64,000 bases of DNA from an uncultured delta proteobacterium. GTDB taxonomy: Bacteria; Myxococcota_A; Polyangia; Polyangiales; Polyangiaceae. The notes beneath the pieces were generated by a model that did not search any database, had not been told where the DNA came from, and worked only from the letters and a program-made list of their open reading frames with translations. This document shows, piece by piece, positions 36,359 through 64,000 of the stretch. Each line of letters starts with the position of its first letter. Positions within the stretch are counted from its first letter, which is position 1. The position numbers and the translations under genes were made by a program. Location of the stretch: positions 76,915 to 140,914 of the forward strand of contig CAVXQZ010000002.1 of NCBI GenBank assembly GCA_963764075.1, in the 5' to 3' direction.

Positions 36359-36390
36359 GCGGAGCCCGCGCGTGCTAGGAGGGAGCGCCG

Positions 36391-37449: not shown

Positions 37450-37528
37450 GAGGGGAGGCGAAGTGGCTTCTGTCGCGGCGAGGCTGTGCGATGCGGGCGA
37501 GACGAGCAGGACCGGCTAGGCGTTCCGT

Positions 37529-46650: not shown

Positions 46651-46809
46651 GTCCGAGGCCGAGGCCGGGGGCGCTTCCGGGACCGTTGCAACCGCGGGCC
46701 GACCGCGCGACTGCGCCGCCATTGGCGGCCGCCGCCGACGGGTGTGGGCGGTTTTCCGGTATGCGCCGCGGCACCCGCACCCGGCGTGCTCCTTGCCACT
46801 CAAGCGCAC

Positions 46810-48183: not shown

Positions 48184-48244
48184 GGTCGCGCTCGGGGGCT
48201 CAGACTGGGCGGTACACGAACTTTGCATACCTCGGTCGTCACCC

Positions 48245-48619
48245 ATGGAAAGCGATCAAGAACTATCGACCGTGCGTCTGATGCAAGAAGCGCTCGACGA
48301 AGCGCGCGAGCTCACGCGTCTCGAAGTCGCGCTCGCACGCCAAGAAGTCATGGCCGAGCTCCGGCAGGTCCAATCGAGCGCGATCGCGTTCGGCGGCTCG
48401 GCCGCCGCGGTTTTGGCCGCTTTCATCATGTGCATGGTGGCCATCGCCCTCGCGTTCTCCGCGCCTTGGGCGGCTGCGCTCGTCATCGCGGCCGTTCTCC
48501 TTTGCATCGGCGGCGCGCTCGGCGTTGCCGCTTTTCGGTCGCTGCCAGCAAAGCCCTTGGCGAAGACGAAGCAGCGCATCGAAGAAGACATGAAGCTTCT
48601 AAAGGAGCGGAGCGCATGA
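48245..48619 (+). CDS. holin-X / phage-holin-family-like small membrane protein
   Basis: 124 aa: an N-terminal amphipathic helix, two TM helices (AIAFGGSAAAVLAAFIMCMVAIALAF, AAALVIAAVLLCIGGALGVAAF) and a basic tail. Confidence 0.55.
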   Translation: MESDQELSTVRLMQEALDEARELTRLEVALARQEVMAELRQVQSSAIAFGGSAAAVLAAFIMCMVAIALAFSAPWAAALVIAAVLLCIGGALGVAAFRSLPAKPLAKTKQRIEEDMKLLKERSA

Positions 48620-49059
48620 GCGGCAACCCAAAGTCCCGAGAAGAGCTGACGGAGGAGGCGGAGCAAGTGAGGTCCAAGCTGCTCCGCACGGTCGGCGAGC
48701 TCGATGATCGCCGTCACGGAGCGATTGCCTTCCGAAAGCAGCTCGAGCGCTACGCGCGAAACATCGCCATCGCAGGGGGGCTCCTCCTCGTCGTGACAGC
48801 GGGCGCGCTTGTGCTCGGGGTCAACCGCCTGACCTCTGCCGCCGACCGCCGCCGCCGCGGTCGCTGGCACCTCGCAAAGTCACTCTGGTCGCACCCGGAG
48901 CGCGGCCTGCGCGGCGAACGGCGCTCGTTCTTCGGCGAGATCGTCCGTTCGCTGCTCCTGTCGATCGCAAGCGCGGGTGTCACGTTTCCCGTGCGCCACT
49001 TCGCCGCGCAGCTGGAGCGGAGCGCTCGCGCACCGCGCCGCCGCCAAAGCGAGCGCTGA
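48616..49059 (+). CDS. DUF3618-like membrane-anchored protein
   Basis: The ATG at 48616 overlaps the upstream stop (ATGA). Sequence MSGNPKSREELTEEAEQVRSKLLRTVGELDDR... with one TM helix. Confidence 0.5.
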   Translation: MSGNPKSREELTEEAEQVRSKLLRTVGELDDRRHGAIAFRKQLERYARNIAIAGGLLLVVTAGALVLGVNRLTSAADRRRRGRWHLAKSLWSHPERGLRGERRSFFGEIVRSLLLSIASAGVTFPVRHFAAQLERSARAPRRRQSER

Positions 49060-49156
49060 GGCCTCGCTCCGTCACGCGGGTTTCGAGACCACTCGTTGAC
49101 AAGCCGCGGATGCGACACAAACTGTCGAGTGCGCGCGGCCATGTGCCCGCGCCCGC

Positions 49157-49175
49157 GCGTGACATTCCGTCACGC
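49157..49175 (+). promoter_or_regulatory. inverted repeat GCGTGAC-ATTCC-GTCACGC upstream of the CpxP/Spy-like gene (candidate operator)
   Basis: It lies 50 nt upstream of the ATG at 49225. Its reverse complement GTGACGGAATGTCAC matches 21063-21077 apart from one extra A. An extra half-site TCCGTCACGC is at 49068-49077. Confidence 0.35.
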
Positions 49176-49224
49176 TCGGTAGCGCCCGCCGAGAGCGAAA
49201 CCGCCTCGGCGAGGAGGTAACGAC

Positions 49225-49713
49225 ATGCATCCGGGAATGTTTTGGTGGCACGGACACCGTCGCGCCGCGTGCGGCGAGGGCGGGACGGATTGGCACGCGG
49301 GGCCGTTCGGCGGTCGGGGGTTTTCGGGGCCGTTCGGCGGCGGCGGCGGAGATGGCGAGCCGTTCGGAGGTGGCAGCTTCGGCGTGCGCCGTCCCTTGCG
49401 GTTCCTTGCGTACAAGCTCGATCTCGACGAAAAACAGGTGACCGAGCTGGCGGCGATCCTCCACGAGTTGAAGACCGAGCGAGCCCAGGCCGAGGTCGAC
49501 TATCGGCGGACCACGTCTGCCTTGGCCGACGCGGTTGCGAGTGAATCGTTCGACGAGAGCAAGGCGCAGGCGGCCGCGGGCGAACGGGTGAAGAGCACCG
49601 AGCGTGTCCAAGCGGCCGTTTCGCGAGCGCTCGGGCGTATCCACGCCGTCCTTCGGCAGGAGCAACGGACGAAGCTCGCGTATCTGCTTCGCACCGGCGC
49701 CCTGTCGATGTAA
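49225..49713 (+). CDS. Spy/CpxP/ZraP-like periplasmic stress protein
   Basis: Gly-rich N-terminal region followed by helical LDLDEKQVTELAAILHELKTERAQAEVDYRR... A GAGGAGG Shine-Dalgarno sequence is 8 nt upstream. Confidence 0.5.
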   Translation: MHPGMFWWHGHRRAACGEGGTDWHAGPFGGRGFSGPFGGGGGDGEPFGGGSFGVRRPLRFLAYKLDLDEKQVTELAAILHELKTERAQAEVDYRRTTSALADAVASESFDESKAQAAAGERVKSTERVQAAVSRALGRIHAVLRQEQRTKLAYLLRTGALSM

Positions 49714-49727
49714 GCGCGGAGGACCGA

Positions 49728-49764
49728 GAGGATCAGGAAGGGCCGCGAGGCTTTCCTGATCCTC
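49728..49764 (+). terminator. 12-bp-stem hairpin after the CpxP-like gene
   Basis: GAGGATCAGGAA-N13-TTCCTGATCCTC, 15 nt after the TAA stop. No U-tract. Confidence 0.4.
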
Positions 49765-49810
49765 CGGGCGCCCGTCCCTTCGCCTTCAGAAGTGCTACAA
49801 GGCGCGGGCC

Positions 49811-50821
49811 GTGAAATTCGTCGATTCGTGCGAAGTGAGGGTCGTCGGCGGCGACGGCGGCAATGGGTGCATCGCGTTCCGCCGCGAGAAGTACGAGCCT
49901 CACGGCGGCCCCTCGGGGGGCGACGGAGGAAGGGGCGGCAACGTCATCTTCGTTGGGGACGAGGGCAAGACGACGCTGCTCGACGTGGCGCTGACTCGCG
50001 TTCTTCAAGCGGAGCGTGGCGAGCACGGTCGCGGAAAAGACCAATACGGTCGAGGGGGAAAAGATCTGGTCGTGCGCGTGCCGGTGGGAACGCAGGGATT
50101 CGACGTCGCCACGAGCGAGCGAGTGTTCGATGTCGACGCGGGGGACAAAGAGGTCGTAATCGCGCGAGGCGGTCGCGGCGGCCGCGGAAACATTCACTTC
50201 GCGACGCCGTTCGACAGGGCCCCGCGGCGCGCCGAACCCGGCGAGCCGGGCGAGAGCAGGACGCTGCGTCTCGAGCTGAAAGTGATGGCCGACGCCGGCC
50301 TCCTCGGCTTTCCGAACGTCGGCAAGAGCACCTTCGTGAGCACAGTGTCGCGCGCGCGGCCCAAAGTCGCTGATTATCCATTTACGACGCTCGTGCCCCA
50401 CTTGGGAGTCGTCGCGGTGGGAGAAGAATCGAACTTCGTGCTCGCGGACATTCCGGGTCTGATTCCCGGAGCGGCGCAAGGTGCGGGGCTGGGTATTCGC
50501 TTTCTCAAGCACGTGGAGCGCACCCGCGGCCTCCTTCACCTCGTTTCGGTCGACGCCGGCGTAGGGCGCGAACCGCTGGCGGATTTCGACGCGATCAACG
50601 CGGAACTGATGAAGTTCGATCCTCGGCTCGCCGCGCGACCGCAAATCGTGGCAATGAGCAAGGGCGACTTGCCCGAGGTCCGCGAGGTATGGGCGAAGTC
50701 AAGGGACGCGTTCGCCGCGCGCGGCATCGATCTCAAGCTCGTGTCCGCGGCGACGGGCGAAGGTGTCCGCGAGGTCATCGTGGCGTTGTGGAAGCTTCTG
50801 GGAAGGGGCAGCGACGGATGA
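49811..50821 (+). CDS. obg: GTPase Obg/CgtA
   Basis: MKFVDSCEVRVVGGDGGNGCIAFRREKYEPHGGPSGGDGGRGGNV...GFPNVGKST...DIPGLI. Confidence 0.95.
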   Translation: MKFVDSCEVRVVGGDGGNGCIAFRREKYEPHGGPSGGDGGRGGNVIFVGDEGKTTLLDVALTRVLQAERGEHGRGKDQYGRGGKDLVVRVPVGTQGFDVATSERVFDVDAGDKEVVIARGGRGGRGNIHFATPFDRAPRRAEPGEPGESRTLRLELKVMADAGLLGFPNVGKSTFVSTVSRARPKVADYPFTTLVPHLGVVAVGEESNFVLADIPGLIPGAAQGAGLGIRFLKHVERTRGLLHLVSVDAGVGREPLADFDAINAELMKFDPRLAARPQIVAMSKGDLPEVREVWAKSRDAFAARGIDLKLVSAATGEGVREVIVALWKLLGRGSDG

Positions 50822-50916
50822 CGCGCGGCGCCTCGAAGCGGGGCGCCGGGACCCACGCAGCGGCGCCCGCGATCGGGCACGGTCCATGCTCGTGACGGGA
50901 GCTTGGAGGTTCCGAT

Positions 50917-51168
50917 ATGCCGCACGATCCCGAGAACAAGGCGCCCGAGCCCGAGAAGGATGAGGCGCGAACCGATCCCGAGCTGCAGAACGAGGGGGAA
51001 GGCAGCCGTACCGCCGCACGGCGCTATGACCAAGGGGTAGAGGAAGCGGGCAAGGACCAGAAGCACGTCGAGCAGCTGGCAAAAGAGGCGGCCGAGGCGC
51101 TCGACGGGCCGGAAGGGGAGGAACTTCGCAAGGCCGAGGAGCGCGGCAAGCGTCACGAACACAAGTAA
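50917..51168 (+). CDS. small hydrophilic protein (83 aa)
   Basis: GGAGG lies 8 nt upstream of the ATG. The protein is charged, Glu/Lys-rich and looks disordered. No family recognised. Confidence 0.5.
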   Translation: MPHDPENKAPEPEKDEARTDPELQNEGEGSRTAARRYDQGVEEAGKDQKHVEQLAKEAAEALDGPEGEELRKAEERGKRHEHK

Positions 51169-51416
51169 GGTGGGAAGCTGCGCTCCTTCCCGCGGCCAAG
51201 CGCCGCGGCGGAGCGTGAACAAGGATGAAACGCGAGGGCGCCGAGAAGTCGTCTAGGGCAGCGCCGTCGAGCGGCTCGCGATAGCGAGCGCCATCGCCGA
51301 AGGCGATTGCTCGTATCTCGACGGCGGTGCACTGGCGCCCCCCGCCACCGTTTGCTGCCTCGTGGCGGAGGGGGTGGTATCGTAGCGAGATTGCCTCTCC
51401 CTCCCGACGCCGCCAC

Positions 51417-52718
51417 ATGAGAACAGTGAGGCTCGCGGGGCCACTCGCATCGTGCGCCCTAGGGGTCGCGGCAGCGTGCGGTGCGGGCGATGCCACCTCG
51501 GGAAACGGCGACGCCGGCAGTGCGGGCGATGCCATCTCGGGAAACGGCAATGACGGCGGTGCCCGTGGCGCCATGTCCAGTGACGCGGCGATCTTCGCAG
51601 ATTCTTCCGAGGCAGGCGACGACGAAGCCGCGATGGACTCGGGAGTTCGGGAGACGGCGATTGCTGTGTCCACGGGCGCTACCACTGTTTGCGCGCTCAC
51701 GTCGAGCGGCGGAGTCGAGTGCTGGGGCTTCCAGCTCGGAAGCGCCGCGACGGGGACATTCCGCTCGGTACGCGAGCCCATCGCTGGCCTCGAGAGCGGC
51801 GTGGCGGCCATATCCGTGGGTGCGGTTTCCGCGTGCGCACTCACGACAGCCGGAGCGGTCGAGTGCTGGGGTGACAACACGAACGGTTTGCTCGGGAACG
51901 ATTCGGTGGATGGTTCGAGCACGGTTCCCGTACCCGTCGGCGGTCTCGCAGGTGCCGTGACGGCTATCTCCGTCGGACAATCTTCCGCCTGCGCCCTCAC
52001 GGCGAGCGGAGCGGTCGAGTGCTGGGGAGACAACACGAGCGGTTTGCTCGGGAACGACTCGGTGGATGGTTCGAGCACGGTTCCCGTACCGGTCAGCGGC
52101 ATCGCGAGCGGCGTGACAGCCGTTTCTGTCGGGCAGTCCTTCGCATGCGCACTCGCAAGCGGCGGAGCCCTGTGCTGGGGCAGCAACTATCCGTCTGGCC
52201 TCGGGAGCAACTCGGCGGCCTCCGGCACCGCGGTTCTTCCCATGCCCGTCACCGGACTCGGGGCGGGCGTCACCGCGATCGTCGTGGGCGGCACCTCCGG
52301 CTGCGCCCTTGTCGAAAGCGGAGGAGTCCAGTGCTGGGGAACCATCACGCAAGTCGGCACGTTCGTGAGCGTTCCGGACATTCCCGTGCCGGTCACGGGT
52401 TTGTCGAACGGTGCGACCTCCTTGGCCGTAGGAGGTCAATTCGCCTGCGCTCTGAGCGCGAGCGGAGTCCAGTGCTGGGGCGACACGCCCGTTTTGGGCG
52501 CCGAGTTTCCGACTTACCCTCCCGTGGCCGTCGCGGGACTCCCGGGCCCCGTGAAGGCCCTCTCGGCGGGACCGTCCACGGCGTGTGCGCTCATGGCGAG
52601 CGGAGGGATAGAGTGCTGGGGGGACAATTCGAGCGGTCAGCTCGGGAACGGCTCCGCCGTAGATTGGAGTTCGGTTCCAGTTGCGGTGACGGGGTTCGCC
52701 GGCGCGAACAAGCCGTGA
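51417..52718 (+). CDS. RCC1-repeat (beta-propeller) secreted lipoprotein
   Basis: Lipobox LGVAAACGAG. At least seven blades of the type ACALTxxGxVECWGDNxxGQLG. Confidence 0.85.
   Translation: MRTVRLAGPLASCALGVAAACGAGDATSGNGDAGSAGDAISGNGNDGGARGAMSSDAAIFADSSEAGDDEAAMDSGVRETAIAVSTGATTVCALTSSGGVECWGFQLGSAATGTFRSVREPIAGLESGVAAISVGAVSACALTTAGAVECWGDNTNGLLGNDSVDGSSTVPVPVGGLAGAVTAISVGQSSACALTASGAVECWGDNTSGLLGNDSVDGSSTVPVPVSGIASGVTAVSVGQSFACALASGGALCWGSNYPSGLGSNSAASGTAVLPMPVTGLGAGVTAIVVGGTSGCALVESGGVQCWGTITQVGTFVSVPDIPVPVTGLSNGATSLAVGGQFACALSASGVQCWGDTPVLGAEFPTYPPVAVAGLPGPVKALSAGPSTACALMASGGIECWGDNSSGQLGNGSAVDWSSVPVAVTGFAGANKP
51852..52090 (+). repeat. near-identical 83-nt segments 156 bp apart (a recent blade duplication inside the RCC1 gene)
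   Basis: 51852-51934 and 52008-52090 differ at 3 positions. Confidence 0.9.
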
Positions 52719-52747
52719 CCGCGGGCACCAAAGTCGAGGAATGCGTC

Positions 52748-53836
52748 ATGGGGTGGACAAGCCCGAAACGAGTACGACAACTGGGATTGGTCGCGTCCGT
52801 ATGGAGCGCACTCGCGTGCGGCGGGAACGACGCCGTCTTGCGATCCGGTGATGCGGGAGCGTCCGACGACGATCGGTTGCGTGGAAGCACGGGCGGGCAA
52901 GCTGCGGATTCTGGCGCGGCCGGAGCCGACGCGGTCGGCGCAACCCATCCCACCAGCCTAGCCCCCGCCGACGCTTCCGACTCGGGCGACACCGCAAATA
53001 CGTCGTGCGCCGGTCCTCTGACGTTCGCGGACCCCGACGTGGAGACCGTCGTGCGGCTGGGCATCGGGCTCCCGAACGGGCCGATCCATGAGGCCGATGT
53101 GGTGGGTCTTACCGACTTGAACTTCGAAACCGTGTTTGCTGTTGGGGGAAATGTGCTGTGTCCTCCCGACGGGGGCCAGGAAAACGGCGGCTGTACCGAG
53201 TACCCGAGTACACCTCAGGCCGACGGCTATATTACGTCGCTGCTCGGCGTGGAGTGCCTCCCCAACGTGCGCTCGGTCGAAGTCGATCCCTTCTTTCTGG
53301 ACCTCACGCCGCTTGCGGCTCTTCCGAACCTCGCCACCATTTCTTTCGGTCCGACCGAAGAGTCCAGTTTTCCTCAATTGCCTCAAGTCACGGCGCTCTA
53401 CGCGTACATCGAGGGCACCACGGCAGCGATCTTGTTGGCGATGCCCTCGCTGCGATCGCTGGAATTGGCCGGCGCCGTCGACTTAAGTTCGAGTTCGGCC
53501 AGTTGGGCGCTCTGGGCGCTGACGGGTCTCAGAAGGCTCAGCGTACCGAGGAGCGGGCTCGTCAACACGGTCCCTCTATCTCACCTGACCAATCTGACGG
53601 ACGTGGATCTCAGCGGAAATCAGATTCAGGACATTTCAGAGCTAGCGATGCTCCCTGCGCTCCGGAGCCTCGACTTGAGCAACAACCAGATTACCGATCT
53701 CGCACCCCTGGTCGCAAACCCGGGCCTCGGCTTCGGAAGCGCCATCGATGTGACGGGCAATGCATTGGACTGTACGAGTCAAAACATCGCGACGCTGCGG
53801 GCGAGAGGCGTCACGGTACTCACGGACTGCCCGTGA
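52748..53836 (+). CDS. leucine-rich-repeat secreted lipoprotein
   Basis: Lipobox WSALACGG. C-terminal LRRs LTNLTDVDLSGNQIQDISELAMLPALRSLDLSNNQITDLAPLV. Start taken at the internal ATG at 52748. Confidence 0.8.
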   Translation: MGWTSPKRVRQLGLVASVWSALACGGNDAVLRSGDAGASDDDRLRGSTGGQAADSGAAGADAVGATHPTSLAPADASDSGDTANTSCAGPLTFADPDVETVVRLGIGLPNGPIHEADVVGLTDLNFETVFAVGGNVLCPPDGGQENGGCTEYPSTPQADGYITSLLGVECLPNVRSVEVDPFFLDLTPLAALPNLATISFGPTEESSFPQLPQVTALYAYIEGTTAAILLAMPSLRSLELAGAVDLSSSSASWALWALTGLRRLSVPRSGLVNTVPLSHLTNLTDVDLSGNQIQDISELAMLPALRSLDLSNNQITDLAPLVANPGLGFGSAIDVTGNALDCTSQNIATLRARGVTVLTDCP

Positions 53837-53933
53837 TGGGCCGCGCCGCTGTCCCGTCGGATCGGAATGAGCGTCCGGTGCGCCCTCTCGAGAGCGGCCG
53901 CCTCGCCTGCCACTTCGTGTACCCTCCCGGGGC

Positions 53934-54809
53934 ATGACTCCCCGGAGCCGTGCAAAGACGCCGGACGTAGCTCCTGAAGAGCTCGAGCGGGTCGTGCGCG
54001 AGGCAGCGCGCGGCGCGGCGGGTCTCACGAAGACCGCACTCCGCAAGCGGGTACCGGTCTCGTACCAGCGCCCCGCCAAGCACGTGGACGCCGCGATCGA
54101 CGCCCTCGTGCGAACTGGAGCCATGTTCCTCCTCGAGGAATCGAAGGGGGCGCTCTATTTCGAACACGATCCGCTCGCGCACCTCGACGGTCTCGTTCGC
54201 GAGCGGCTCTCGACACCGCGGACCCAGCGGGCGCTCAAGGCCTGGGTCGGTGAGGTCGCGCCCGGGTACGACGTCGCGTTCGACGGGTGGTTCAAGCGCG
54301 CAACGAACGGTGCCGTTCTTTACGAGCAGAGCCCACTCCCCCGGTCGAAAGCGAAACGCTTCGGTCGAGAACCCGAACCGGTGGACGTTGCCGCGCTGCT
54401 CTCCCCGGTCATCAAGTCGTTGCGCGCCACGCTGAGGAAACTCGACGCGAAGCGCGTCCCGCGCCAGCGGGTCCGCGAGGTGCTCCTCGCTGCGCTCGAA
54501 TCGTCCGGGGCAGATTGGCACGCGAACGGCGAAAAGGACGACGACCGCTCCCGTTTCGTCGCGGCTCTCGATCGGCTGGCCGCCGACGACCCCGCGACCG
54601 CGCTCCTTTCCATTCGCGCCCTGCGCCGTCGCCTGTCGCTCGACAAGAAGGCGTTCGACGATCTCGCTCTCGATCTCGCCCACGAAGGGGTCGTGGAGCT
54701 TCATTTTCACGACTATCCTGCCTCGCTCCCCGACTCGGAACGCGCAGAGCTCGTTGTGGACGCGAAGGGAACGCACTACGTCGGCATCACGCCGAGGGCG
54801 AGACCATGA
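53934..54809 (+). CDS. gene A of the candidate system: hypothetical protein with two winged-helix-like segments
   Basis: 291 aa. N-terminal segment GLTKTALRKRVPVSYQRPAKHVDAAIDALVRTGAMFLLEE and C-terminal segment LLSIRALRRRLSLDKKAFDDLALDLAHEGVVELHFHDY. The stop overlaps the start of gene B. Confidence 0.6.
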   Translation: MTPRSRAKTPDVAPEELERVVREAARGAAGLTKTALRKRVPVSYQRPAKHVDAAIDALVRTGAMFLLEESKGALYFEHDPLAHLDGLVRERLSTPRTQRALKAWVGEVAPGYDVAFDGWFKRATNGAVLYEQSPLPRSKAKRFGREPEPVDVAALLSPVIKSLRATLRKLDAKRVPRQRVREVLLAALESSGADWHANGEKDDDRSRFVAALDRLAADDPATALLSIRALRRRLSLDKKAFDDLALDLAHEGVVELHFHDYPASLPDSERAELVVDAKGTHYVGITPRARP

Positions 54810-56755
54810 GCGGACTCGCAGCTCTTCCAAACCCGTTTCGCGACAACGTGGTCCAGGACGCGTGGCAGGCGACGGTCGACCTACCCGAAATCCACGCCGG
54901 CGCGTTCGACGCCTGCCTGGCCGGAATCGACTGCGCCTCCCGCGGTGTGCCGGACTCGCTCCTCATTTACGGCGTCGCGGGGTCGGGCAAAACGCACCTT
55001 CTCGGGCGCCTACAGCGGCACCTCACGGACACCGCACGAAGTGCGCCCGACGCCGTCCTCCGGTGCGTGTTCAGCTCGATACGCCTCCAGACGACGCGTG
55101 ACCTGCTCTGGCAGCACCTGCGCCGACGGTTCGCCGCCGACCTCATGCGCCGTGAGCAAGGGTTGACGCAGCTCCAGAGGCTCGTCGCTCACCAGCTTGC
55201 CGTTTCGGACGGGCACGGCCCCCGCGCCGGGATCCTGGAGCTACGGGTCCTTCGCGTGGAAGACGAGCCGACGCTCCTTCAACGGCTGCACGACGTCGGC
55301 GTGCGCCTCGGACTGCCGCGCGACCTCGCGATTGCCCTCGAACACCTCGTTTTGAACCGGAATGTGCGCGACGCGTCTGCGTGGCTCGCGGGCGAGAGCC
55401 TGCCCGAACAAGTCGCAGCGGCGCTCGGGCTCGGCGCCGAAGCCGACGAAGATCGCGAGCACGTCGCGCACCGGGTCGTGACCGCGCTCTGTCGGCTGGC
55501 CGGAGGAACGCTGCCCATCGTCTTCTGCTTCGATCAGGTCGAGTCGCTCCAGCGAACGCGGCACGACGACGAAGCGTTCTTCGCGTTCGGGCGCATGGCC
55601 TCGGATCTCTGCGACTCCGATCCGAACGTGTTCCTGATCACGTGCTTGCAGTCCGCGCTCCTCGAACCCTTTCGCGACGCGATCCGGCGATCCGACTGGG
55701 AGCGGATCGCGCGCCGGAGCGTGGCGCTCGATCACCTCACGCCGGTCCAGGTCGAGAAGCTCGTACGGGTGCGTTTGGAGGCGCACACCGAGCTCGCGAG
55801 CCTGCGCGCGAAGCGCTCGCGGGAGCCGTTCTACCCGCTCGAGGCACCCTTCGTCGCCCAGCTCGCGCTCGAGTCGCCTTGTGTCGCGCGGCGTGTCCTC
55901 GCGCTCGCGGCCCGGGAGTTCGAATCGAAGCAGCTCGGGCGACGCCCGTCAGGAACACGCCCGGTCGCGGAGTTCCTGGCACGCGAGCTCGAAGACCGCA
56001 TCCAGAAGCGTTTGCCGGCGCTGAAGCCGTCGGAGACCACGGGTATCTTGGCGCGCGGCGCCTCGCTCCTTGCCGAGCTGGCCGGCGCGGAGCTCACGGA
56101 GCAAGATCCGCGGCCGGCGGACGTCCTTCTCGCGGGGCCGCGTCGCGTCGCGCTTTCGTTCCGCAACGAGATCGACGGACGAAGTCTCACGCCGAAGCTC
56201 AAAGGCCTGCTCGCGCAGCCCTCCGGCAAGGGAGACCCGGCGCTCGTCATTCTGCGCGACCCGCGCCTTGCGCTCTCGAAAGCCGCCGCGCGGGCGCGCG
56301 AGCACCTCGACTCGCTTCGGGCGCGTGGGGCCAGCTTCGTCGAGCCGACCGTCGAGGCGCTCGCCGCGCTCGACGCTCTGGCCTCGATCCTGGGAGACGC
56401 AAAGTCCGGCGATCTAGCCGACGACGAGGCGCCGCCGCTCGATGCGGGCGCCGTATTGACGTGGGTACGAAGCCTTCGCTCGCATGCGCTTCTCGAGCCC
56501 GTCGGAGAGCTCGTGGCGTCCATTTTCGGAGGCGCTCCCGCCGGCCCCGACGACCTGGAGACGGACCTCGCTTTGCTTCTGAGCCAGGAGCACGTCATCG
56601 AGGCTGCGTCGGCGGCGAAGGTCTTGGGGGTGGAGGTCGAGGCCGTGCTCCGGTGCGGGCGCCAAGCGACGGCGCACTGTCTCGTGCTCGAAGGGCCACC
56701 GCCGGTCTTGCTCGACGTGTCCGGCGTCCCGCTGGACGGGCAGCAGCGCTCATGA
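54806..56755 (+). CDS. gene B: ORC/Cdc6/DnaA-like AAA+ (P-loop) NTPase with a long helical C-terminal region
   Basis: 649 aa. NPFRDNVV...LLIYGVAGSGKTHLLGRL (Walker A, aa 56-63), PIVFCFDQVE (Walker B-like, aa 238-246), SVALDHLTPVQVEKLVRVRL lid-like motif. ATGA overlaps at both ends. Confidence 0.7.
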   Translation: MSGLAALPNPFRDNVVQDAWQATVDLPEIHAGAFDACLAGIDCASRGVPDSLLIYGVAGSGKTHLLGRLQRHLTDTARSAPDAVLRCVFSSIRLQTTRDLLWQHLRRRFAADLMRREQGLTQLQRLVAHQLAVSDGHGPRAGILELRVLRVEDEPTLLQRLHDVGVRLGLPRDLAIALEHLVLNRNVRDASAWLAGESLPEQVAAALGLGAEADEDREHVAHRVVTALCRLAGGTLPIVFCFDQVESLQRTRHDDEAFFAFGRMASDLCDSDPNVFLITCLQSALLEPFRDAIRRSDWERIARRSVALDHLTPVQVEKLVRVRLEAHTELASLRAKRSREPFYPLEAPFVAQLALESPCVARRVLALAAREFESKQLGRRPSGTRPVAEFLARELEDRIQKRLPALKPSETTGILARGASLLAELAGAELTEQDPRPADVLLAGPRRVALSFRNEIDGRSLTPKLKGLLAQPSGKGDPALVILRDPRLALSKAAARAREHLDSLRARGASFVEPTVEALAALDALASILGDAKSGDLADDEAPPLDAGAVLTWVRSLRSHALLEPVGELVASIFGGAPAGPDDLETDLALLLSQEHVIEAASAAKVLGVEVEAVLRCGRQATAHCLVLEGPPPVLLDVSGVPLDGQQRS

Positions 56756-58671
56756 CGGTCCACCTTTCGGTTGCAGACGTCCGCGCTGCGCTCGCCGAGG
56801 CCTCGGGCGCAGACGGTGCCGGCAAGGGGGAGCCTGCGACGGCGCTCCTCGGGCGCCTCTTCCACGATACGTTCGCAGACCTCGTCGGCGTCGATCCCCT
56901 CCGGAGCGGCCTGCGCGTGATCGTCGAGGGGAGCGCCGAGACCGGTCGCCGCAACGAACAGCTCGTGGAGCACACCTGGCAGCGCCTTCTCGCCCCACGC
57001 CTCCGCCGGAACGCCGCCGTGCTGCAGGACTCCGCCGCCGAGGTCATGACGCTTTGGCGAGCCACGAAGAACCTCGCCGCGTGGCTCTCGGGGATCGTCG
57101 CCGAGCTCGTCGCGCACAGCCCCGGGCTCAGCGCCCATTGGGAGCGCGTCGAGCCCTTGCTGCGAGCCGAAGTCCCTCTCCAATGCGAGATTCGCGAGCC
57201 GGGATGGAAGGAGTCCGTACGTCTCGTCGGGTACGCCGATTCCGTCCTGCGCGTCCCCGGACGCGAGGCCTTCTGCGCCATCGAGCTCAAGCTCGGTCGC
57301 GCGATGCCGGCGGTGGACCTGGGGCAAGCGGCCCTCTACTACGTGATGCTGGCCCGCTCGGCGCCGACACCGAAGAGCGACGCGCGAAGGTCGGGCCTCG
57401 CCATGGTCCGATTCTCTCCGGGCCTCGACGAACACGTCGTCGAGGCCGCGGCGCTCGGCGGCGCCGTCGAGCAGCTCGTGCAGCTCATCGGACGCCTCGC
57501 GGGCGTGCTGCCTGACCCCCGCGCGACGAATGCCGGTCACCTTGCAGGAACGGTCGCAGCGCCAGGGCCCGAGGCGGCCGACAAGTCGGGGCCGGACGAG
57601 CCTGACACGCCGTACGCGCAAATTGGCAAGCGGCTGGCGAGCGCGTATCGCGAGCACGGCGTCGGCGTCGAAATCGTCGGGCCGCCGCGCGTCGGCCCGC
57701 GCTTTCTCCGCTTCGAGGCGCGCCTCAGCACAGGGACGAAGCTCGACGGACTTCGCCGGAGGACGGCCGAAGTCCAGCATCGCCTCGCGCTTTCGTCGGA
57801 GCCGCTGATTGTCCAGGAGGGAGGACGCCTCTACGTCGATGTGGCGCGTCCCGACCCGGAGACCGTGCTGTTCTCGGCGATCGCGTCCGCGCTCCCGGCA
57901 GTGGATTCGGTCCGGGGCTCGGCGAAAGCCGTCATCGGCGTGGATCCGGGGCGCCGAATACGTTTCGCCGATCTGGCAAGCGCCGGGCGGTCGCACGTGC
58001 TGGCGGCGGGCACGACTGGCAGCGGCAAGAGCGAATGGCTCCGGATGATGCTCGCGAGCCTCATCGCGACCAACACGCCGGAGACGCTCCGCGTCGTTAC
58101 GCTCGACCCCAAGCTCGCCGCGTTCAACGACCTCGAAGGAAGCAAATTCCTCTGGAAAAACGACGCCTTCTGGATCCCGAACGGCCGGCCTGCGAGCGAG
58201 CTATTCGAGGAGCTCATCGAAGAAATGGAGCGCCGCTATCAGCTCACCCGTCAGGCCGGTGCCGACGATTTGGCTGCCTACGTCCAGAAGACGGGTCGGC
58301 CCCTCGCGCGCATCGTGTGCCTGTGCGACGAGTATTTCGCGCTGATATCGCAGAACAAGCAGGAGAAAGCCGCGATCGAACGCGCGGTGGCTCTCCTCGG
58401 CGCAAAAGCCCGAGCCGCGGGAATTCACCTGGTGCTCGCCACCCAACAGCCAAGCCGCGCGACCGTCACCGGCGCGATTCAGGCAAACTTGCCGTGTCGA
58501 GTTGCGCTCACGCTCTCGAGCCACATCGAGTCGTCCATGATTCTCGGCGTCTCGGGCGCCGAGCGGCTCACGGGTTCGGGCGACCTGCTCTACAAAGACT
58601 TCGGGGAACCTGTTCGTCTGCAGGCGCCATATCTCCCGGACGGGGAACGCCGCAGCTTGTTTCGGTCGTGA
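56752..58671 (+). CDS. gene C: RecB/Cas4-type PD-(D/E)xK nuclease domain fused to an FtsK/SpoIIIE-family DNA translocase ATPase
   Basis: 639 aa. Nuclease motifs: CEIRE (145-149), GYADS (D163), AIELK (E178, K180), QAALY (Q192, Y196). Motor motifs: AAGTTGSGKSE (K426), IVCLCDEY (D526-E527), HLVLATQQPS. No TM segments and no gamma domain. Confidence 0.75.
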   Translation: MTVHLSVADVRAALAEASGADGAGKGEPATALLGRLFHDTFADLVGVDPLRSGLRVIVEGSAETGRRNEQLVEHTWQRLLAPRLRRNAAVLQDSAAEVMTLWRATKNLAAWLSGIVAELVAHSPGLSAHWERVEPLLRAEVPLQCEIREPGWKESVRLVGYADSVLRVPGREAFCAIELKLGRAMPAVDLGQAALYYVMLARSAPTPKSDARRSGLAMVRFSPGLDEHVVEAAALGGAVEQLVQLIGRLAGVLPDPRATNAGHLAGTVAAPGPEAADKSGPDEPDTPYAQIGKRLASAYREHGVGVEIVGPPRVGPRFLRFEARLSTGTKLDGLRRRTAEVQHRLALSSEPLIVQEGGRLYVDVARPDPETVLFSAIASALPAVDSVRGSAKAVIGVDPGRRIRFADLASAGRSHVLAAGTTGSGKSEWLRMMLASLIATNTPETLRVVTLDPKLAAFNDLEGSKFLWKNDAFWIPNGRPASELFEELIEEMERRYQLTRQAGADDLAAYVQKTGRPLARIVCLCDEYFALISQNKQEKAAIERAVALLGAKARAAGIHLVLATQQPSRATVTGAIQANLPCRVALTLSSHIESSMILGVSGAERLTGSGDLLYKDFGEPVRLQAPYLPDGERRSLFRS

Positions 58672-58777
58672 CGTGTGGCGAGCGCCGGGGGCACCCCCGT
58701 GCAGGGCGAGCCTGTCGGTCGCGTAGGGAACCCGTCGGCCCACCGGCGGGAAGCCGACCGCTAGGTTCCGGCCAAGG

Positions 58778-59812
58778 CTAGGTCCGTAGGGCCCGCGTCC
58801 ATCCCGTTCGACTTCTCAAAAGGGCTATGATCTCCTCGCGAGTTCGGCGCTTCGGTCCGAGGTCGACGAACTGTTCTGCGAGCCGATCGTATCGACCGAT
58901 CATGAGGTATGCCCACACGCTGAAAAAATCGAGTCCCTCGAAGACGATGGCCCCCTGCGATGCGTAGGTATCGAGATGCCGGTGAAACTCTTCCGGTAGC
59001 TCCGTATAGTGGCGGGTCGCCTTGAGGTGGTGTCCGATGTGATAGCCGTCGTTGAAGCAGCGCCGGTTGTAGCTCGAGTTGATGCACGTGATGCTGTTTC
59101 GGTAGCTGTTCTCGGGGGCCGCCGGGTCGACGAACGCGTGCTGTCCCCAGTTGCCGGCCATCATCGCAAAGCGCGTCATTACGAACGGCACGACGAACAC
59201 CGCTAGAGTTGCGCGCCAGTCGATGTAGAGCAGCGCGGCGACTGCGCAATAGAAGGAAACCTCTCCGACGATCGTGCGAGTAAGGAGGGAGCGCCGTCCC
59301 TTTTTTGCAAAGTAGTTCGTGAGATCGAAGAAGCCGAAAAAGAAAAAGTGCCCGAAGTAACGCAAGAAGTCCACGATACGGTCGCGGCGGTATCGCAGAG
59401 TCGAGCTAATGTCCTCATCGAGGTTGTTCTCGGGGTGGTGCATCCCGACGTGGTGAGTGAAATAGGCCTCCGGCGATTCGCCGAAGAACGGACCGAGCAC
59501 CCACGGGATGTAAAGATTCAGCCAATCCCAGGGTCGCCGGAAGAGGCGCCGGTGGCTGGTGTTGTGGAGCATCAGGACAAACGGCCCCGAGAAGTAGATG
59601 ACGAGCGCCACGTGGACCGCCGCAAGCCACCACCGGAAGCAATGCGGCACGAAGAGCGCGATCCCCGTCGGAACCACCGTCGCGCTGAGTAGAACCATCA
59701 GCTTCAGGAACGGCACGTCGCGGCGATCGTGGATCAACTGCTCGGCGATTCGTTCCACCAGGCCTGGCGCATCCGGCGGCGTATAGATCGGGTCGCGAAG
59801 GGTGATGTTCAC
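58778..59812 (-). CDS. membrane fatty-acid desaturase family protein
   Basis: Three His boxes: HNTSHR, HHVGMHH, HIGHH. Multiple TM helices. Confidence 0.85.
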   Translation of the reverse strand: MNITLRDPIYTPPDAPGLVERIAEQLIHDRRDVPFLKLMVLLSATVVPTGIALFVPHCFRWWLAAVHVALVIYFSGPFVLMLHNTSHRRLFRRPWDWLNLYIPWVLGPFFGESPEAYFTHHVGMHHPENNLDEDISSTLRYRRDRIVDFLRYFGHFFFFGFFDLTNYFAKKGRRSLLTRTIVGEVSFYCAVAALLYIDWRATLAVFVVPFVMTRFAMMAGNWGQHAFVDPAAPENSYRNSITCINSSYNRRCFNDGYHIGHHLKATRHYTELPEEFHRHLDTYASQGAIVFEGLDFFSVWAYLMIGRYDRLAEQFVDLGPKRRTREEIIALLRSRTGWTRALRT

Positions 59813-59921
59813 GCGGACTACCTTTACGATCGATCGCGCCTGGGTGCGAGCGGTCTGATTGCTCCTCCGCCCGTTCTATCTTCGGGATGAAACAGCCCCC
59901 GATCCGTGTACATTGCGCCGA

Positions 59922-61853
59922 ATGAGCGACCTGTCCCCGGCCCCTTCGCCGCCAAAGGCATCCAAGGACGTACGCCCGCCGGGCGGCTTTCCTTACCGTG
60001 CCGCGCTCGCGCTCGCGGAGGCGATCATCCCCGGTTCTGCCACCGTTCCCGCGGCCGACGAGGCCACGGTGGCCCGCGCGGAGGAAGTCCTCCGCGCATT
60101 TCACCCGAGTTTGCCGCGGGCGTGGAGCATCGCTCAGGCGACCCTTGCCGCCGCTGCGATCGCGCAAAGCGGGCGCCCCTTCGATCTTCTCACCGCGGCG
60201 CAGCAAGAGGAGCTCATTCGCCGGTGGGAGGACGACCCGGTGCTCAAGACGCCGCTCGCGCTAATGTCGGTCGTCTACAAGTTCGTGCACTTCGATCAGC
60301 GCGACGTCTACGAGACGCTGGGCGGAAAGCTCAACGTCGTCGGAGCGCTGGAGTCACCCCGCTGGCTCCGTCAGATCCAACGCGCCGAGCAATGGCGCGG
60401 CGGCGACGTGGAATGCGAAGTCGTGGTCGTCGGCACCGGCGCGGGCGGAGGCGTCGTCGGACGCGAGCTCGCGGATCGGGGCTTCGCGGTGGTCTTCGTC
60501 GAAGAAGGGGAGCACTACCGGCGCGACGCGTTCGACGGAAGCTCGGTCCGGGCGCATCAGCGATTTTATCGCGGGGCGTTCTCGGTCGGCAACATGGCCA
60601 TGCCGGTCTTCATCGGCCGGCTGGTCGGAGGCTCGACCGCGATCAACGGGGGTACCTGCTTTCGAGCTCCGCCCTGGGTCCTCGACCGCTGGTGCGAGGA
60701 CACCGATTCGGGGGACTTTTCGACCGAGGAAATGCGGCCGTATTTCGAACGCGTGGAGGCGGTCCTCGACGTGCGAGACGCCGATCGCTCGACCATCGGT
60801 CCTATCGGCGATGTCATGGCGCGCGGTTGCGACGCACTCGGCTGGAGCCACTACCCGATCCGACGCAACGCGCCGGGGTGCGACGGCTCCGGCTTCTGCG
60901 ACTTCGGCTGTCGGACCGACGCGCGCCGCGGCACGAACATCGCGTACATTCCGCCTGCCCTCGAGAAGGGGGCGATGGTCTTCACGGGGCTCCGTGCAGA
61001 AAGCGTCGCGATCGAGGGACGCCGCGCCGTCGGGGTGGACGCAATCGACAAGAACGGGCGCACCATCCGCGTCCGCGCCCGCGCGGTCGTGCTCGCGGGG
61101 GGCGCGATCCCGACGCCCCTTTTTCTTTTGAAGCAAGGCATTTGCAATCGCAGCGGTCAGGTCGGCAGAAACCTCAGCACCCACCCGAGCGGCGGGTTCT
61201 CTGCGCTCTTCGACCAGCCGATCCGCGGACACGCCCACATTCCTCAGGGCTACTGTTGCGACGAGTTCTTGCGCGAAGGAATGCTCATCACTGCCGCGCA
61301 GCCCGATCTCAACATCGCTGCGGCCGTCATACCGTTCTCGGGCCGGCGCCTGATGGACACCCTGGGGCACCTCGATCACCTGGCGAACTTCGCGATGCTC
61401 GTGCGAGATTCGACCCGCAACGGGCGCGTATGGCGCGACGTCGGGGGCATGCCGGCGATCACGTACAGCGTTGCGGCCGAAGACGTCGACCGCATGCATC
61501 AGGCGATGTGCCGCGTCGGCGAGATGTGCTTGGCGGCAGGCGCCACGAGGATGCACCCGGCCACTTTCAAGCATCGCCTGCTCAAGGGACGGGGCGATCT
61601 CGAAGCGTTCCGAGCGTCGAGGCTCGGACCGACCGACTACATGTGGACGAGCTACCATCCGCTCGGCACCTCGAAGATGGGGCGCGATCCGAAGACAAGC
61701 GTGGTCGACACGAGTCACGAAACTCACGATACGAAGGCGCTCTACATCGTCGATGGAAGCACCGTGCCCGGGCCGCTGGGGGTCAACCCGCAGCTGACCA
61801 TCATGGCCATGGCGACTCGGGCCGCCGAAAAGATCGCCGAGCGAATCAGCTGA
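59922..61853 (+). CDS. GMC-family FAD-dependent oxidoreductase
   Basis: VVVVGTGAGGGVVGRELADRGFAVVFVEEGE (FAD fold) and C-terminal HPLGTSKMG...ALYIVDGSTVP. Start taken at the internal ATG at 59922. Confidence 0.88.
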   Translation: MSDLSPAPSPPKASKDVRPPGGFPYRAALALAEAIIPGSATVPAADEATVARAEEVLRAFHPSLPRAWSIAQATLAAAAIAQSGRPFDLLTAAQQEELIRRWEDDPVLKTPLALMSVVYKFVHFDQRDVYETLGGKLNVVGALESPRWLRQIQRAEQWRGGDVECEVVVVGTGAGGGVVGRELADRGFAVVFVEEGEHYRRDAFDGSSVRAHQRFYRGAFSVGNMAMPVFIGRLVGGSTAINGGTCFRAPPWVLDRWCEDTDSGDFSTEEMRPYFERVEAVLDVRDADRSTIGPIGDVMARGCDALGWSHYPIRRNAPGCDGSGFCDFGCRTDARRGTNIAYIPPALEKGAMVFTGLRAESVAIEGRRAVGVDAIDKNGRTIRVRARAVVLAGGAIPTPLFLLKQGICNRSGQVGRNLSTHPSGGFSALFDQPIRGHAHIPQGYCCDEFLREGMLITAAQPDLNIAAAVIPFSGRRLMDTLGHLDHLANFAMLVRDSTRNGRVWRDVGGMPAITYSVAAEDVDRMHQAMCRVGEMCLAAGATRMHPATFKHRLLKGRGDLEAFRASRLGPTDYMWTSYHPLGTSKMGRDPKTSVVDTSHETHDTKALYIVDGSTVPGPLGVNPQLTIMAMATRAAEKIAERIS

Positions 61854-63474
61854 AGAAATCGCGGACCGTCCGCAGCCGTTTTCGGATGGCCAAAGGGAGC
61901 CGGAGCGCGCCTTCGAACCGGCCGAGCTGCAGGTTGGCGACAATTCCCCCTATGTCCCATAGGGTCTCGTCGTACGGCATCCAGAAGAACTCGGCGGCCT
62001 TCGCGTTGTCGACCACGGTGGCGCGGGGTCGCACGAACGTGGCGAGAGCGTGCGCGCTGTTGGCCACGCCGAAGCCCGTCTCGCGTGTTCCGCTCCATGG
62101 AAGGGCTGGAATGGCGCCCGAGAACGCATGGTTGTTGATGGTGACGACGCCGACGTCGAGCCGTTCGGCGAGCCGCTTGGCCCGCGCTACGTCTCGCGTC
62201 CAAATCGATGCACCGAGGCCGTATCGCGACGAGTTCGTTCGACGCACCGCCTCGGCGGCGCCGGCGACCCGAATGATCGCGAGCACCGGACCGAACGTCT
62301 CGTCGCGCACGACCCGCATCCGGTCGTGGCATTTGTCGAGGAGCGTAGGGGAGTAGAAAAGGCTGCTCCCGATCGGGGCTCCGCCGCAGACCACCACCGC
62401 ACCCTTCGCGCGCGCGTCTTCCACGTGGGCGATGACGGTCTGCAATTGCCGGCGGTTCGCGAGCTGTCCTACATCGGCGAACCGTTCGGGCCCGACCCGC
62501 AGCCGCGTCCACGCACTTCGCATGGCCGCTACGAACCGGTCCGCGATGAGCTCGTCGACGTAAACGACCTCGATTGCGCCGCAGGCCTGTCCGACGTTCG
62601 ACAGGGCCCAGTGCGTGATCCCCGCGACTGTGCGGGGCAAGTCGCAGTCCGCAAGGACGATCGCAGGGTCTTTGCCCCCCATCTCGACACTCGAGGGAAT
62701 GCCGCGCTCCGCACACTGCACGCGAACCGCGCGCCCGGACTCCGGAGAGCCCGTGAAGACGCACGCGTCGATGCCCGCGTCGATGAGCGCCGCACCGACG
62801 CGGCCGTCGCCATGAACGACGCGGACGAGCCCATCGGGGAGCTCGGCTGCCAGGCGATCGATCAGCCACGCGCTCGTCTTCGGGCTGAACTCGGAAGGCT
62901 TGACGACGACGGCGTTGCCCGTCAGAAGCGCCGGGATGGTCGGCCGGTAAAGCCCGGCGACGGGGAAGTTCCACGGCGCGATGACGCCGATCACTCCACG
63001 CGGGACCAGATCGACGTAGGCCTGCTTTCTCGGAAAACTGATTGGGTTCAAGTGAACGTGCTGACGTCGAGTCGCGTTCCGCACGAGCTTCGTCCAGCTC
63101 TTGACGTTGTCGAGCGGACCGAGCGCCTCGTTGAACAGCCCTTCGACGTCGACCTTTCCCATCTCCTCGCGCGCGAGCGCGATGACCTCGGCGCGTCGCC
63201 GGAGCATCTCCACCGCCGCACGAGTCAGCGCCTTCGCGCGCTCGGCGAACGGCACCAGTTGCCATTCGTACTGGGCGGCCTTGGCGCGGGCCACGGCCTC
63301 GCGCAGTTCGACCACAGACGAGGTGCTGGTCGAAGCGTGCGGCGGGGGCTGCCGCGGCTCGAGCGGAAGCACGGCCTCACGGTGGCGCGGGGTGGCGCCG
63401 CTCGAGTCGTGCGGGAAGGCGCCCTCGGCGAGGGGGGCGCGGGTCGTGTGGCCGTTGACGGGGGTTTCGCTCAC
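61846..63474 (-). CDS. NAD(P)-dependent aldehyde dehydrogenase
   Basis: VIAPWNFP...VVKPSEFSP...SVEMGGKDP...GQACGAIE (catalytic Cys)...ETFGPV. The start is uncertain (GTG at 63474 or 63372). The upstream part of the tracked ORF is out-of-gene. There is an 8-nt convergent overlap with the GMC gene. Confidence 0.85.
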   Translation of the reverse strand: MSETPVNGHTTRAPLAEGAFPHDSSGATPRHREAVLPLEPRQPPPHASTSTSSVVELREAVARAKAAQYEWQLVPFAERAKALTRAAVEMLRRRAEVIALAREEMGKVDVEGLFNEALGPLDNVKSWTKLVRNATRRQHVHLNPISFPRKQAYVDLVPRGVIGVIAPWNFPVAGLYRPTIPALLTGNAVVVKPSEFSPKTSAWLIDRLAAELPDGLVRVVHGDGRVGAALIDAGIDACVFTGSPESGRAVRVQCAERGIPSSVEMGGKDPAIVLADCDLPRTVAGITHWALSNVGQACGAIEVVYVDELIADRFVAAMRSAWTRLRVGPERFADVGQLANRRQLQTVIAHVEDARAKGAVVVCGGAPIGSSLFYSPTLLDKCHDRMRVVRDETFGPVLAIIRVAGAAEAVRRTNSSRYGLGASIWTRDVARAKRLAERLDVGVVTINNHAFSGAIPALPWSGTRETGFGVANSAHALATFVRPRATVVDNAKAAEFFWMPYDETLWDIGGIVANLQLGRFEGALRLPLAIRKRLRTVRDFFS

Positions 63475-63574
63475 GATTCTGTCCGATACCCCGGATGAGG
63501 CGGGCGCCACAACTGGAAGCTTGCATCGGGCTTTCGGTTGTCCGACCGTGCCCGTGCCCGAGCGGGTCCACTCG

Positions 63575-64000
63575 ATGTCCGACCAGACCGAAGCGCCCAC
63601 GCCCCGTCGCCTTCGAAAAGCCAGGGAAGAAGGGGATAGCGGCTCAAGCACGTACGCAGCGCAAGCGGTCGCTTTCATTGTGGTCGTCGCCCTCGTTCCG
63701 CACGCCGTCCGGGCGCTCGCCTCGCGCGCATCGGATGAGCTTCGCGCCGCGCTCGCAGCAGTGGCCGCCCTCCACGGACCGCCGAGGTTCGACCCGCTGG
63801 AACTGGCGATGTCCGTGACCTCGCTGACGGTGCCCATCCTGCTCGCTGCGGGAATCGTCGGTGCGGCGGCACAAGCCATCCAGACCGGGGGAGTCGTCGC
63901 CACGAAGAAGCTGACACCGAGGCTCGAGCGGCTCGATCCCATCGCGGGTTTCAAGCGTCTGTTTTCCGCGGCCCGTCTTTTCGCCGTGGCGCGTGCCATT
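63575..64000 (+). CDS. type III secretion export-apparatus switch protein (SctU/YscU/FlhB family), N-terminal 142 codons, truncated by the window edge
   Basis: My translation: MSDQTEAPTPRRLRKAREEGDSGSS...LTVPILLAAGIVGAAAQAIQTGGVVATKKLTPRLERLDPIAGFKRLFSAARLF. These match the family motifs (EKTExPTPKRLxxARxxG, the TM pair, and LNPxxGxKRxFS). The frame is open to the last base. Confidence 0.8.
   Translation, partial: MSDQTEAPTPRRLRKAREEGDSGSSTYAAQAVAFIVVVALVPHAVRALASRASDELRAALAAVAALHGPPRFDPLELAMSVTSLTVPILLAAGIVGAAAQAIQTGGVVATKKLTPRLERLDPIAGFKRLFSAARLFAVARAI

Follow-up and report, generated by a model that had tools for sequence, protein, structure and literature searches.

What does a compact cassette of three overlapping genes do in the genome of an uncultured Polyangiaceae bacterium? 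The cassette, about 4.8 kb in size, lies on contig CAVXQZ010000002.1 (assembly GCA_963764075.1), in a stretch of 64,000 nucleotides (nt; positions 76,915 to 140,914 of the forward strand) that we analysed as a whole and refer to as the window. Its genes A, B and C are predicted to encode a tandem triple winged helix-turn-helix (wHTH) protein, an Orc/Cdc6-clade AAA+ ATPase, and a protein in which a RecB/Cas4-type PD-(D/E)XK nuclease precedes an FtsK motor. We propose, with a probability of roughly 60%, that this triad is a stand-alone anti-invader cassette of the predicted 'HerA/FtsK capture' class, in which A would select the DNA, B would act as switch and loader, and C would pump and cut.

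Our analysis confirmed the three coupled genes as real and the cassette as self-contained. An earlier note, made from the letters of the window, had described three same-strand open reading frames (ORFs) joined by 4-nt ATGA start/stop overlaps, and these can be read at 54806–54809 (A/B) and 56752–56755 (B/C). The isolation of the cassette that it had described was also found, with a leucine-rich repeat (LRR) gene ending at 53836, 97 bp before gene A, and a convergent gene downstream. GC content by codon position (GC1 about 0.75, GC2 about 0.48, GC3 0.79–0.83) follows the pattern of real genes in this genome of 65–70% GC, a normal coding signature. High-GC DNA yields long spurious ORFs, and overlapping ORFs were listed on both strands, so that one might suspect three frames adjacent by chance or annotation artefacts. 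However, besides the correct codon-position GC, we found significant Pfam domains, hundreds of full-length homologues, confident AlphaFold2 (AF2) models, a gene order kept in 12 loci and ratios of nonsynonymous to synonymous substitution (dN/dS) below 0.35. The suspicion is thereby refuted, and its probability is close to nil.

Protein C joins two enzymes in one chain. The fusion of a RecB-type nuclease with an FtsK motor that had been proposed for it is borne out by matches to Pfam PDDEXK_1 and FtsK_SpoIIIE and by a profile search against the PDB with 57 homologues, in which the motor was closest to cellular FtsK, i.e. to the Pseudomonas aeruginosa protein (2iuu, 4e-56) and also to the Escherichia coli FtsK motor. 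The same 57 homologues keep the nuclease motifs GxAD163, E178-L-K180 and Q192xxxY196 invariant, as well as the motor residues K426 (Walker A), D526-E527 (Walker B), Q565/Q566 and R569. Nuclease motifs are retained in relatives at 36–40% identity, and PDDEXK_1 is matched individually in eight of nine diverse members. With every catalytic residue kept, C is thus predicted to be an active nuclease; all residues that the earlier note had proposed for mutation (D163, E178, K180 and K426 in C, K62 in B) proved to be conserved. An FtsK alpha domain is faint in C itself and a recorded match in several of its homologues.

C shares with cellular FtsK and SpoIIIE the alpha plus beta motor, the Walker A and B motifs, a TQQPS-type sensor region and conserved arginines. 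Nevertheless, it is not a cellular FtsK. The nuclease stands in the place of the N-terminal membrane domain, no transmembrane N-terminus or other membrane anchor was found, and the protein ends directly after the beta domain, with no gamma wHTH domain for reading FtsK-orienting polar sequences (KOPS). It scores 127 bits against the NCBIfam FtsK model, whose cutoff is 1566, and, unlike cellular FtsK, it is encoded in a three-gene cassette that relocates. Full-length homologues of C are numerous, the best 120 having 55–99% identity; like those of B they come nearly all from metagenomes or metagenome-assembled genomes (MAGs) labelled Polyangiaceae, Myxococcota or Deltaproteobacteria. In two of the 12 triad loci described below, gene C is split. 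The frame changes inside the nuclease domain near residue 189 in L093 (11925–13800), and nuclease and motor lie in different frames across the linker in L091 (12004–14101). These could be assembly indels, pseudogenes or truly split genes.

Judged from its modelled fold, protein B is an Orc/Cdc6-clade AAA+ ATPase, which agrees with the assignment in the earlier note. It passes the cutoff of Pfam AAA_16 (6e-8), and its AF2 model (predicted local distance difference test score, pLDDT, 88.5; predicted template modelling score, pTM, 0.84) consists of five parts. Foldseek ranked archaeal Cdc6/Orc1 structures first (1fnn, 2qby and 2v1u, probability 1.0), together with eukaryotic ORC/Cdc6, and listed the conflict-system relatives RdrA, BrxC and TnsC lower. 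The Walker motifs that had been recognised in B are conserved, but the roughly 400 amino acids (aa) behind them are not simply the helical tail that had been supposed; the model resolves them into a lid, a helical bundle, an alpha/beta domain and a C-terminal wHTH. Full-length homologues at 49–100% identity are numerous, again nearly all from metagenomes or MAGs; grouped at 90% identity, they form 265 clusters in a set of 5.8 billion proteins. In an exhaustive profile search, E <= 1e-3 was reached by 1638 cluster representatives (50% identity) and E <= 1e-30 by 326; they are mostly 600–690 aa long and match from end to end.

AAA+ core, lid and C-terminal winged helix are shared by B with Orc1/Cdc6 and with SspC, BrxC, RdrA and TnsC, and partner genes of BREX, Ssp, RADAR or transposons do not occur with the triad. 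B differs from Orc1/Cdc6 by a domain of about 130 aa and helical segments inserted before the wHTH, by a conserved N-terminal NPF motif, and by a Walker B of the form D-Q-x-E instead of D-E-x-D. We measured conservation in 64 close homologues and in 115 distant representatives at 27–49% identity. In the latter, N-P-F, the Walker A sequence GxxGxGKTH, W193, E218, D243-Q244-x-E246, R362, R484 and W553 are 95–100% conserved, with values of 96–98% for N-P-F and 98–99% for D-Q-x-E. Family-wide, glutamine has thus replaced the usual catalytic glutamate right behind the Walker B aspartate. In analogy to engineered E-to-Q mutants of AAA+ proteins, this suggests that B hydrolyses ATP slowly and is switch-like rather than a motor. 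In the inserted alpha/beta domain no (D/E)xK set is conserved throughout the 115 representatives, R484 alone being kept. The modelled domain is consistent with an inactive nuclease-fold, or restriction endonuclease (REase), domain.

Protein A was classified from its predicted structure. The AF2 model (pLDDT 82.6) has the helix/strand order of three wHTH units joined by helices, and the Foldseek matches are tandem winged-helix proteins, namely RPC34, TFIIIC, the C-terminus of SelB, YceH and ScpB. The winged-helix character that the earlier note had read from helix-turn-helix-plus-wing segments thus stands, although the model contains three such units and not two. A itself belongs to no Pfam or PADLOC family; members of its family match winged-helix Pfam families weakly, and a sequence search of the PDB gave no significant match for A or for B. 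A is the fastest-evolving subunit of the triad. We found 10 homologues of it, compared with hundreds for B and C, and its identity is 30–44% in loci where B and C have 50–67%. Between the window and the close relative L001, on which all dN/dS values here are based, gene A has a ratio of 0.31, compared with 0.14 in B and 0.13 in C. All three genes are hence under purifying selection and the cassette is functional.

Change is unevenly spread along A. Its parts have dN/dS values of 0.36 (wH1), 0.33 (wH2), 0.50 (linker) and 0.15 (wH3); wH1 and wH2, at the N-terminus, accumulate changes at two to three times the rate of the rest. On its wing strand, wH3 carries an L-H-x-H-D motif (aa 257–260, nt 54702–54713), with L256, H257 and D260 invariant and H259 almost so; the motif is kept in the most distant homologues. 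It might serve as an interface or bind a metal. In the distant locus L008, protein A has an additional N-terminal winged-helix-like segment and thus four wHTH units.

The combination of these domains is not new, contrary to the suggestion of the earlier note. Rakesh, Aravind & Krishnan (Nucleic Acids Res 2024, PMC10853773) predicted a class of anti-invader 'HerA/FtsK capture' systems by comparative genomics, and the class was restated in a 2026 BREX paper of the same group (PMC12839542). The accessible portions of the 2024 paper, to which our comparisons with the class refer throughout, give as its core domains an Orc/Cdc6 ATPase, an inactive REase, an active REase, HerA/FtsK and wHTH. The inactive REase sits within the Orc/Cdc6 protein, behind the AAA+ core and ahead of the C-terminal wHTH, one subset has an FtsK alpha domain captured from cellular FtsK, and 'a subset' has a separate, fast-evolving protein of two to four wHTH units. 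Orc/Cdc6 was proposed to localise the restriction apparatus, while the pump would intercept invader DNA and feed it to the nuclease. Systems of this Orc/Cdc6-coupled kind stand alone and carry no modification enzyme. The view of the earlier note that the triad is a DNA-translocating nuclease complex directed at foreign DNA agrees with this literature; the gating by an NTPase that it added is still conjecture.

Four of the six sequence-level features of the class are found in the triad: the Orc/Cdc6 AAA+ protein, an active REase-fold nuclease, HerA/FtsK and a mobile neighbourhood. As to the other two, an alpha/beta domain is present at the position of the inactive REase, and A is fast-evolving with its three wHTH units. 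Set against the published description, the triad is probably a member of the Orc/Cdc6-coupled branch of this class, sharing with it the AAA+ protein, the extra domain before the wHTH, the active nuclease and an FtsK with alpha domain. Class architectures are heterogeneous, whereas the layout of the triad is fixed and minimal and always includes gene A. Its nuclease is of the PDDEXK_1 (RecB/Cas4) type and may be one of the 'two distinct REase families' of the class. The N-P-F motif and the D-Q-x-E Walker B of protein B find no mention in the accessible portions of the 2024 paper.

Among named systems, the restriction modules DndFGH/SspFGH, which belong to phosphorothioate systems, likewise have a triple-wHTH subunit (DndG has been described as such), an NTP-binding subunit and a subunit that ends in REase plus HerA/FtsK. 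The triad does not belong to them. No model of DndF, DndG, SspF or SspG matched, and against PADLOC 2.0 only the C-terminal FtsK part of SspH was hit by C (aa 295–633, 4e-43). C has 639 aa, compared with about 1500–1760 positions in the SspH models, and lacks the eight-domain architecture of DndH/SspH, being without the N-terminal part of about 900 aa of DndH with its inactive superfamily 2 (SF2) domain, target recognition domains (TRDs) and inactive methylase. Furthermore, the NTPase of the triad is Orc/Cdc6 AAA+, that of DndF a P-loop kinase, and the triad has no dnd or ssp modification genes next to it.

HerA-NurA, Sir2-HerA and DUF4297-HerA, to which the earlier note had pointed, also couple a pump of the FtsK/HerA superfamily to a nuclease or other effector. 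In those systems the effector is a separate protein; here it is fused to the motor, and NurA, Sir2 and DUF4297 are absent. The motor of C is of the FtsK branch, its likeness to HerA being confined to the P-loop (Pfam DUF87 0.006), which excludes HerA-NurA and Sir2-HerA. In PADLOC, C matched mad8 through FtsK as well and HerA (8e-8) through the P-loop only; the matches to Avs2 and PtuA (both at E > 0.01) were likewise confined to the P-loop, and A and B matched nothing beyond it. The named systems of PADLOC-DB 2.0 (HerA-based, Avs, Septu, MADS and others) thus gave domain-level matches only, none over a whole protein. The statement of the earlier note that the triad corresponds to no named system therefore holds for PADLOC 2.0, which has no matching model and gave generic FtsK matches.

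We compared 12 independent loci: L001, L004 (from the source organism), L005/6, L007, L088–L093 and the distant L008 and L009. A scan of genome contigs with C alone (exact 8-mers) returned one close relative, L001; in a scan of metagenome contigs with a C alignment, 77 of 80 loci were ordinary FtsK recognised by generic motifs, and L008–L010 were useful. The nearest relative besides L004 is an uncultured Polyangiaceae MAG. All 12 loci contain the wHTH gene A and keep the order A-B-C, far more often than chance would allow, and the 4-nt overlaps are mostly retained. Identity with the window, given in the order A, B, C, is 75.5, 90.6 and 91.1% in L001; 41.8, 61.7 and 67.1% in L007; 43.8, 60.7 and 64.9% in L090; 32.8, 61.8 and 65.3% in L005; 34.8, 50.5 and 59.8% in L088; 34.9, 55.4 and 54.7% in L089; 30.1, 37.7 and 39.9% in L008; and 31 (C-terminal domain only), 36.0 and 38.1% in L009.

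The flanks, in contrast, differ in all 12 loci. None of the genes that flank the triad in the window (Obg, RCC1-like, LRR, desaturase, GMC oxidoreductase and aldehyde dehydrogenase) stands beside it in any other locus, L001 included. DNA similarity between the window and L001 extends from 18 bp before the ATG of A to exactly the stop codon of C, apart from a 38-nt element described below. From the conserved order, the differing flanks and this sharp end of homology it follows that the cassette relocates as a unit. The strictly syntenic core locus that would have spoken against the earlier note was thus not seen, and its idea of a DNA-targeting, probably anti-mobile-element cassette is in line with the variable genomic context. 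The expected link to defence islands is mixed. Half of the loci (L005, L007, L089, L001, L091 and L093) have, within 10 kb, genes for integrases, transposases or toxin-antitoxin pairs, or else ATPases and nucleases of the defence type.

A cassette that changes its place might, instead of defending the host, serve a mobile element in its replication, segregation or transfer, with B as initiator, C as FtsK/TraB-like translocase and A as specificity factor. Orc/Cdc6 initiators and FtsK-like translocases are both known in mobile elements, C weakly matches the NCBIfam models of TraB, TraD and CedB, the location of the cassette differs in each genome, a tyrosine integrase lies within 10 kb in two loci, and neighbourhoods with traits of both mobile elements and defence systems are acknowledged for the class in the accessible portions of the 2024 paper (PMC10853773). 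However, integrase, transposase and relaxase do not travel with the triad and are absent in 10 of the 12 loci. No terminal repeats were found, as inverted or direct repeats around the cassette gave only chance-level GC-rich matches, and the end of L001 homology at the stop codon leaves no space for ends or an origin. No relatives of B or of the C nuclease were found in 72,556 plasmids, and none of B in IMG/VR viral contigs. A fully conserved RecB-type nuclease on the pump is also hard to square with the delivery of intact DNA. We hence consider a mobile-element module distinctly improbable.

Could the triad rather be a housekeeping DNA-processing machine of Myxococcota and their relatives, comparable to HerA-NurA or RecBCD/AddAB? 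End resection, resolution of trapped or aberrant chromosomal DNA, or clearing of DNA at division or sporulation would be conceivable tasks. Conservation is strong in B and C (dN/dS about 0.13, 50–76% identity over many MAGs), about half of the loci, the window among them, lie among ordinary genes, and C combines a motor nearest to cellular FtsK with a nuclease of the RecB/AddB family. Yet the locus is non-syntenic even between relatives with 91% identity, and the DNA-binding subunit A evolves at two to three times the rate of the enzymes, as is typical for conflict systems. The family is also rare and almost only metagenomic, as seen from the few clusters of B, and the contigs that carry the triad span 54–68% GC. 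Finally, C has neither the membrane anchor nor the gamma domain through which FtsK is linked to division and to the reading of KOPS. Taken together, a housekeeping role appears improbable.

We thus favour an anti-invader cassette of the capture class, and its working might be pictured as follows. A would be the specificity subunit of a complex of the three proteins, its variable wH1 and wH2 contacting the DNA target, while the conserved wH3 might dock A onto the complex. ATP-bound B, with its own winged helix and its degenerate nuclease-like domain, would be the switch that assembles on the selected DNA. B could then recruit or load C, in analogy to ring-helicase loading by Orc/Cdc6 or to the recruitment of transposition proteins by TnsC. 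As a hexameric ring of the FtsK type, C would finally pump double-stranded DNA (dsDNA) and cut it with the fused RecB-type nuclease, with defence against invading DNA as the predicted outcome.

Several observations weigh against this proposal. The literature search found no experimental work on the class, so that defence is a prediction for all of its members. In the window, and in four or five further loci, the triad is surrounded by ordinary metabolic genes with no evident defence island, and PADLOC gave no match for the neighbours that we submitted (the LRR gene, the desaturase, the R2K gene of L009 and the flanks of L001 and L008). Searches of Pfam, PADLOC and PDB profiles and the best 50 Foldseek matches showed no detectable relation of A to DndG, SspB or FokI, nor any to DUF4007. 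The assignment of the alpha/beta domain of B to the inactive REases is drawn solely from the order of its secondary-structure elements, and hhalign detected no similarity of this domain to the nuclease of C. The cassette contains no modification gene, neither a methylase nor one for phosphorothioation, which leaves the discrimination of self from non-self unexplained.

We may go one step further and speculate that it is the ATP state of B, prolonged by its natural D-Q Walker B, that opens or assembles the FtsK–nuclease ring on DNA that A has picked with its hypervariable winged helices. This specific loader mechanism we regard as doubtful. If true, the triad would be a modification-independent restriction machine with exchangeable specificity, and B the first bacterial initiator-type AAA+ protein to load a dsDNA pump for destruction and not for replication. 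It would link the mechanics of replication initiators to bacterial immunity and explain related modules in DndFGH, SspFGH and BREX-related capture systems. As the class has been predicted from genome comparison only and has no PADLOC 2.0 model, the triad is in any case a convenient test case, being compact, fixed in layout, intact in its catalytic residues and equipped with a separate fast-evolving DNA-binding subunit. It gives access to the coupling of FtsK pump and nuclease, to the role of a D-Q-x-E Orc/Cdc6 protein in immunity and to the discrimination of foreign from own DNA with no modification enzyme.

Outside the three genes, the 38-nt element upstream of gene A is the only sequence common to the window and L001, where it is 89% identical in a differing genomic context. 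It reads GCGGGCGAGAGGCGTCACGGTACTCACGGACTGCCCGT, contains TCACGG twice together with an inverted CCGTGA, and in the window lies across the final codons of the LRR ORF. It may be the promoter or operator of the cassette; in loci more distant than L001 it is not conserved. Around the cassette we found no sigma-70-like promoters, and terminators at the number expected from shuffled sequence. Scans of the window for tRNA genes and Rfam families gave no match. The positions of the main features are collected in the table.

Table. Features of the three-gene cassette and its borders (positions in nt of the window)
Feature	Residues (aa)	Position (nt)	Strand	Remark
38-nt element		53797–53834	+	candidate promoter/operator upstream of gene A; shared with L001
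Gene A	291 aa	53934–54809	+	predicted tandem triple winged-helix (wHTH) protein
A wH1	14–76	53973–54161	+	AF2 model
A wH2	80–144	54171–54365	+	AF2 model
A helical linker	152–192		+	AF2 model
A wH3	200–287	54531–54794	+	AF2 model
Gene B	649 aa	54806–56755	+	predicted Orc/Cdc6-clade AAA+ ATPase
B NPF motif	9–11	54830–54838	+	N-terminal
B AAA+ core	31–310	54896–55735	+	AF2 model
B Walker A	56–63	54971–54994	+	G56..K62-T63
B Walker B	D243-Q244-x-E246	55532–55543	+	within FCFDQVE; Walker B segment 55520–55543
B lid	313–377		+	AF2 model; helical segment after
B alpha/beta domain	408–534	56027–56407	+	order alpha-beta-beta-beta-alpha-beta
B C-terminal wHTH	583–637	56552–56716	+	AF2 model
Gene C	639 aa	56752–58671	+	predicted RecB/Cas4-type PD-(D/E)XK nuclease plus FtsK motor
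C nuclease	28–232	56833–57447	+	RecB/Cas4-type PD-(D/E)XK; Pfam PDDEXK_1 1e-6
C linker	250–290	57499–57621	+	low-complexity, variable
C FtsK alpha domain	291–390	57622–57921	+	faint Pfam FtsK_alpha
C FtsK beta motor	391–633	57922–58650	+	Pfam FtsK_SpoIIIE 2e-28 (aa 390–568)
Downstream convergent gene		58778–59812	-	FA_desaturase (fatty-acid desaturase)

In L009, which holds the most distant triad, a fourth gene (9871–10728) follows C with a 4-nt overlap and encodes an R2K-clade ATP-grasp enzyme (Pfam R2K_3 1e-13). Some versions of the system may thus carry an extra protein- or nucleotide-modifying component.

The sequence of the window from 46769 to 64000 is 99.58% identical to L004, a 5.7-Mb metagenome contig in ENA, with 54 mismatches and 6 gaps in 17 kb, and the triad is free of gaps between the two. 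L004 is evidently from the same organism. Its gene calls were transferred to the region of about 48.2–53.8 kb of the window and identify there a small protein of the Phage_holin_3_6 family, an LTXXQ/Metal_resist protein, the Obg GTPase, an RCC1/WD40-like repeat protein and the LRR protein. Upstream of about 52.7 kb, gene coordinates are shifted against those in the public record, the RCC1-like gene being one example. Further away, positions 34001–38000 have the highest GC content of the window (0.72–0.73), a strongly negative AT skew (-0.19 to -0.25) and numerous overlapping ORFs of high GC3 on both strands.

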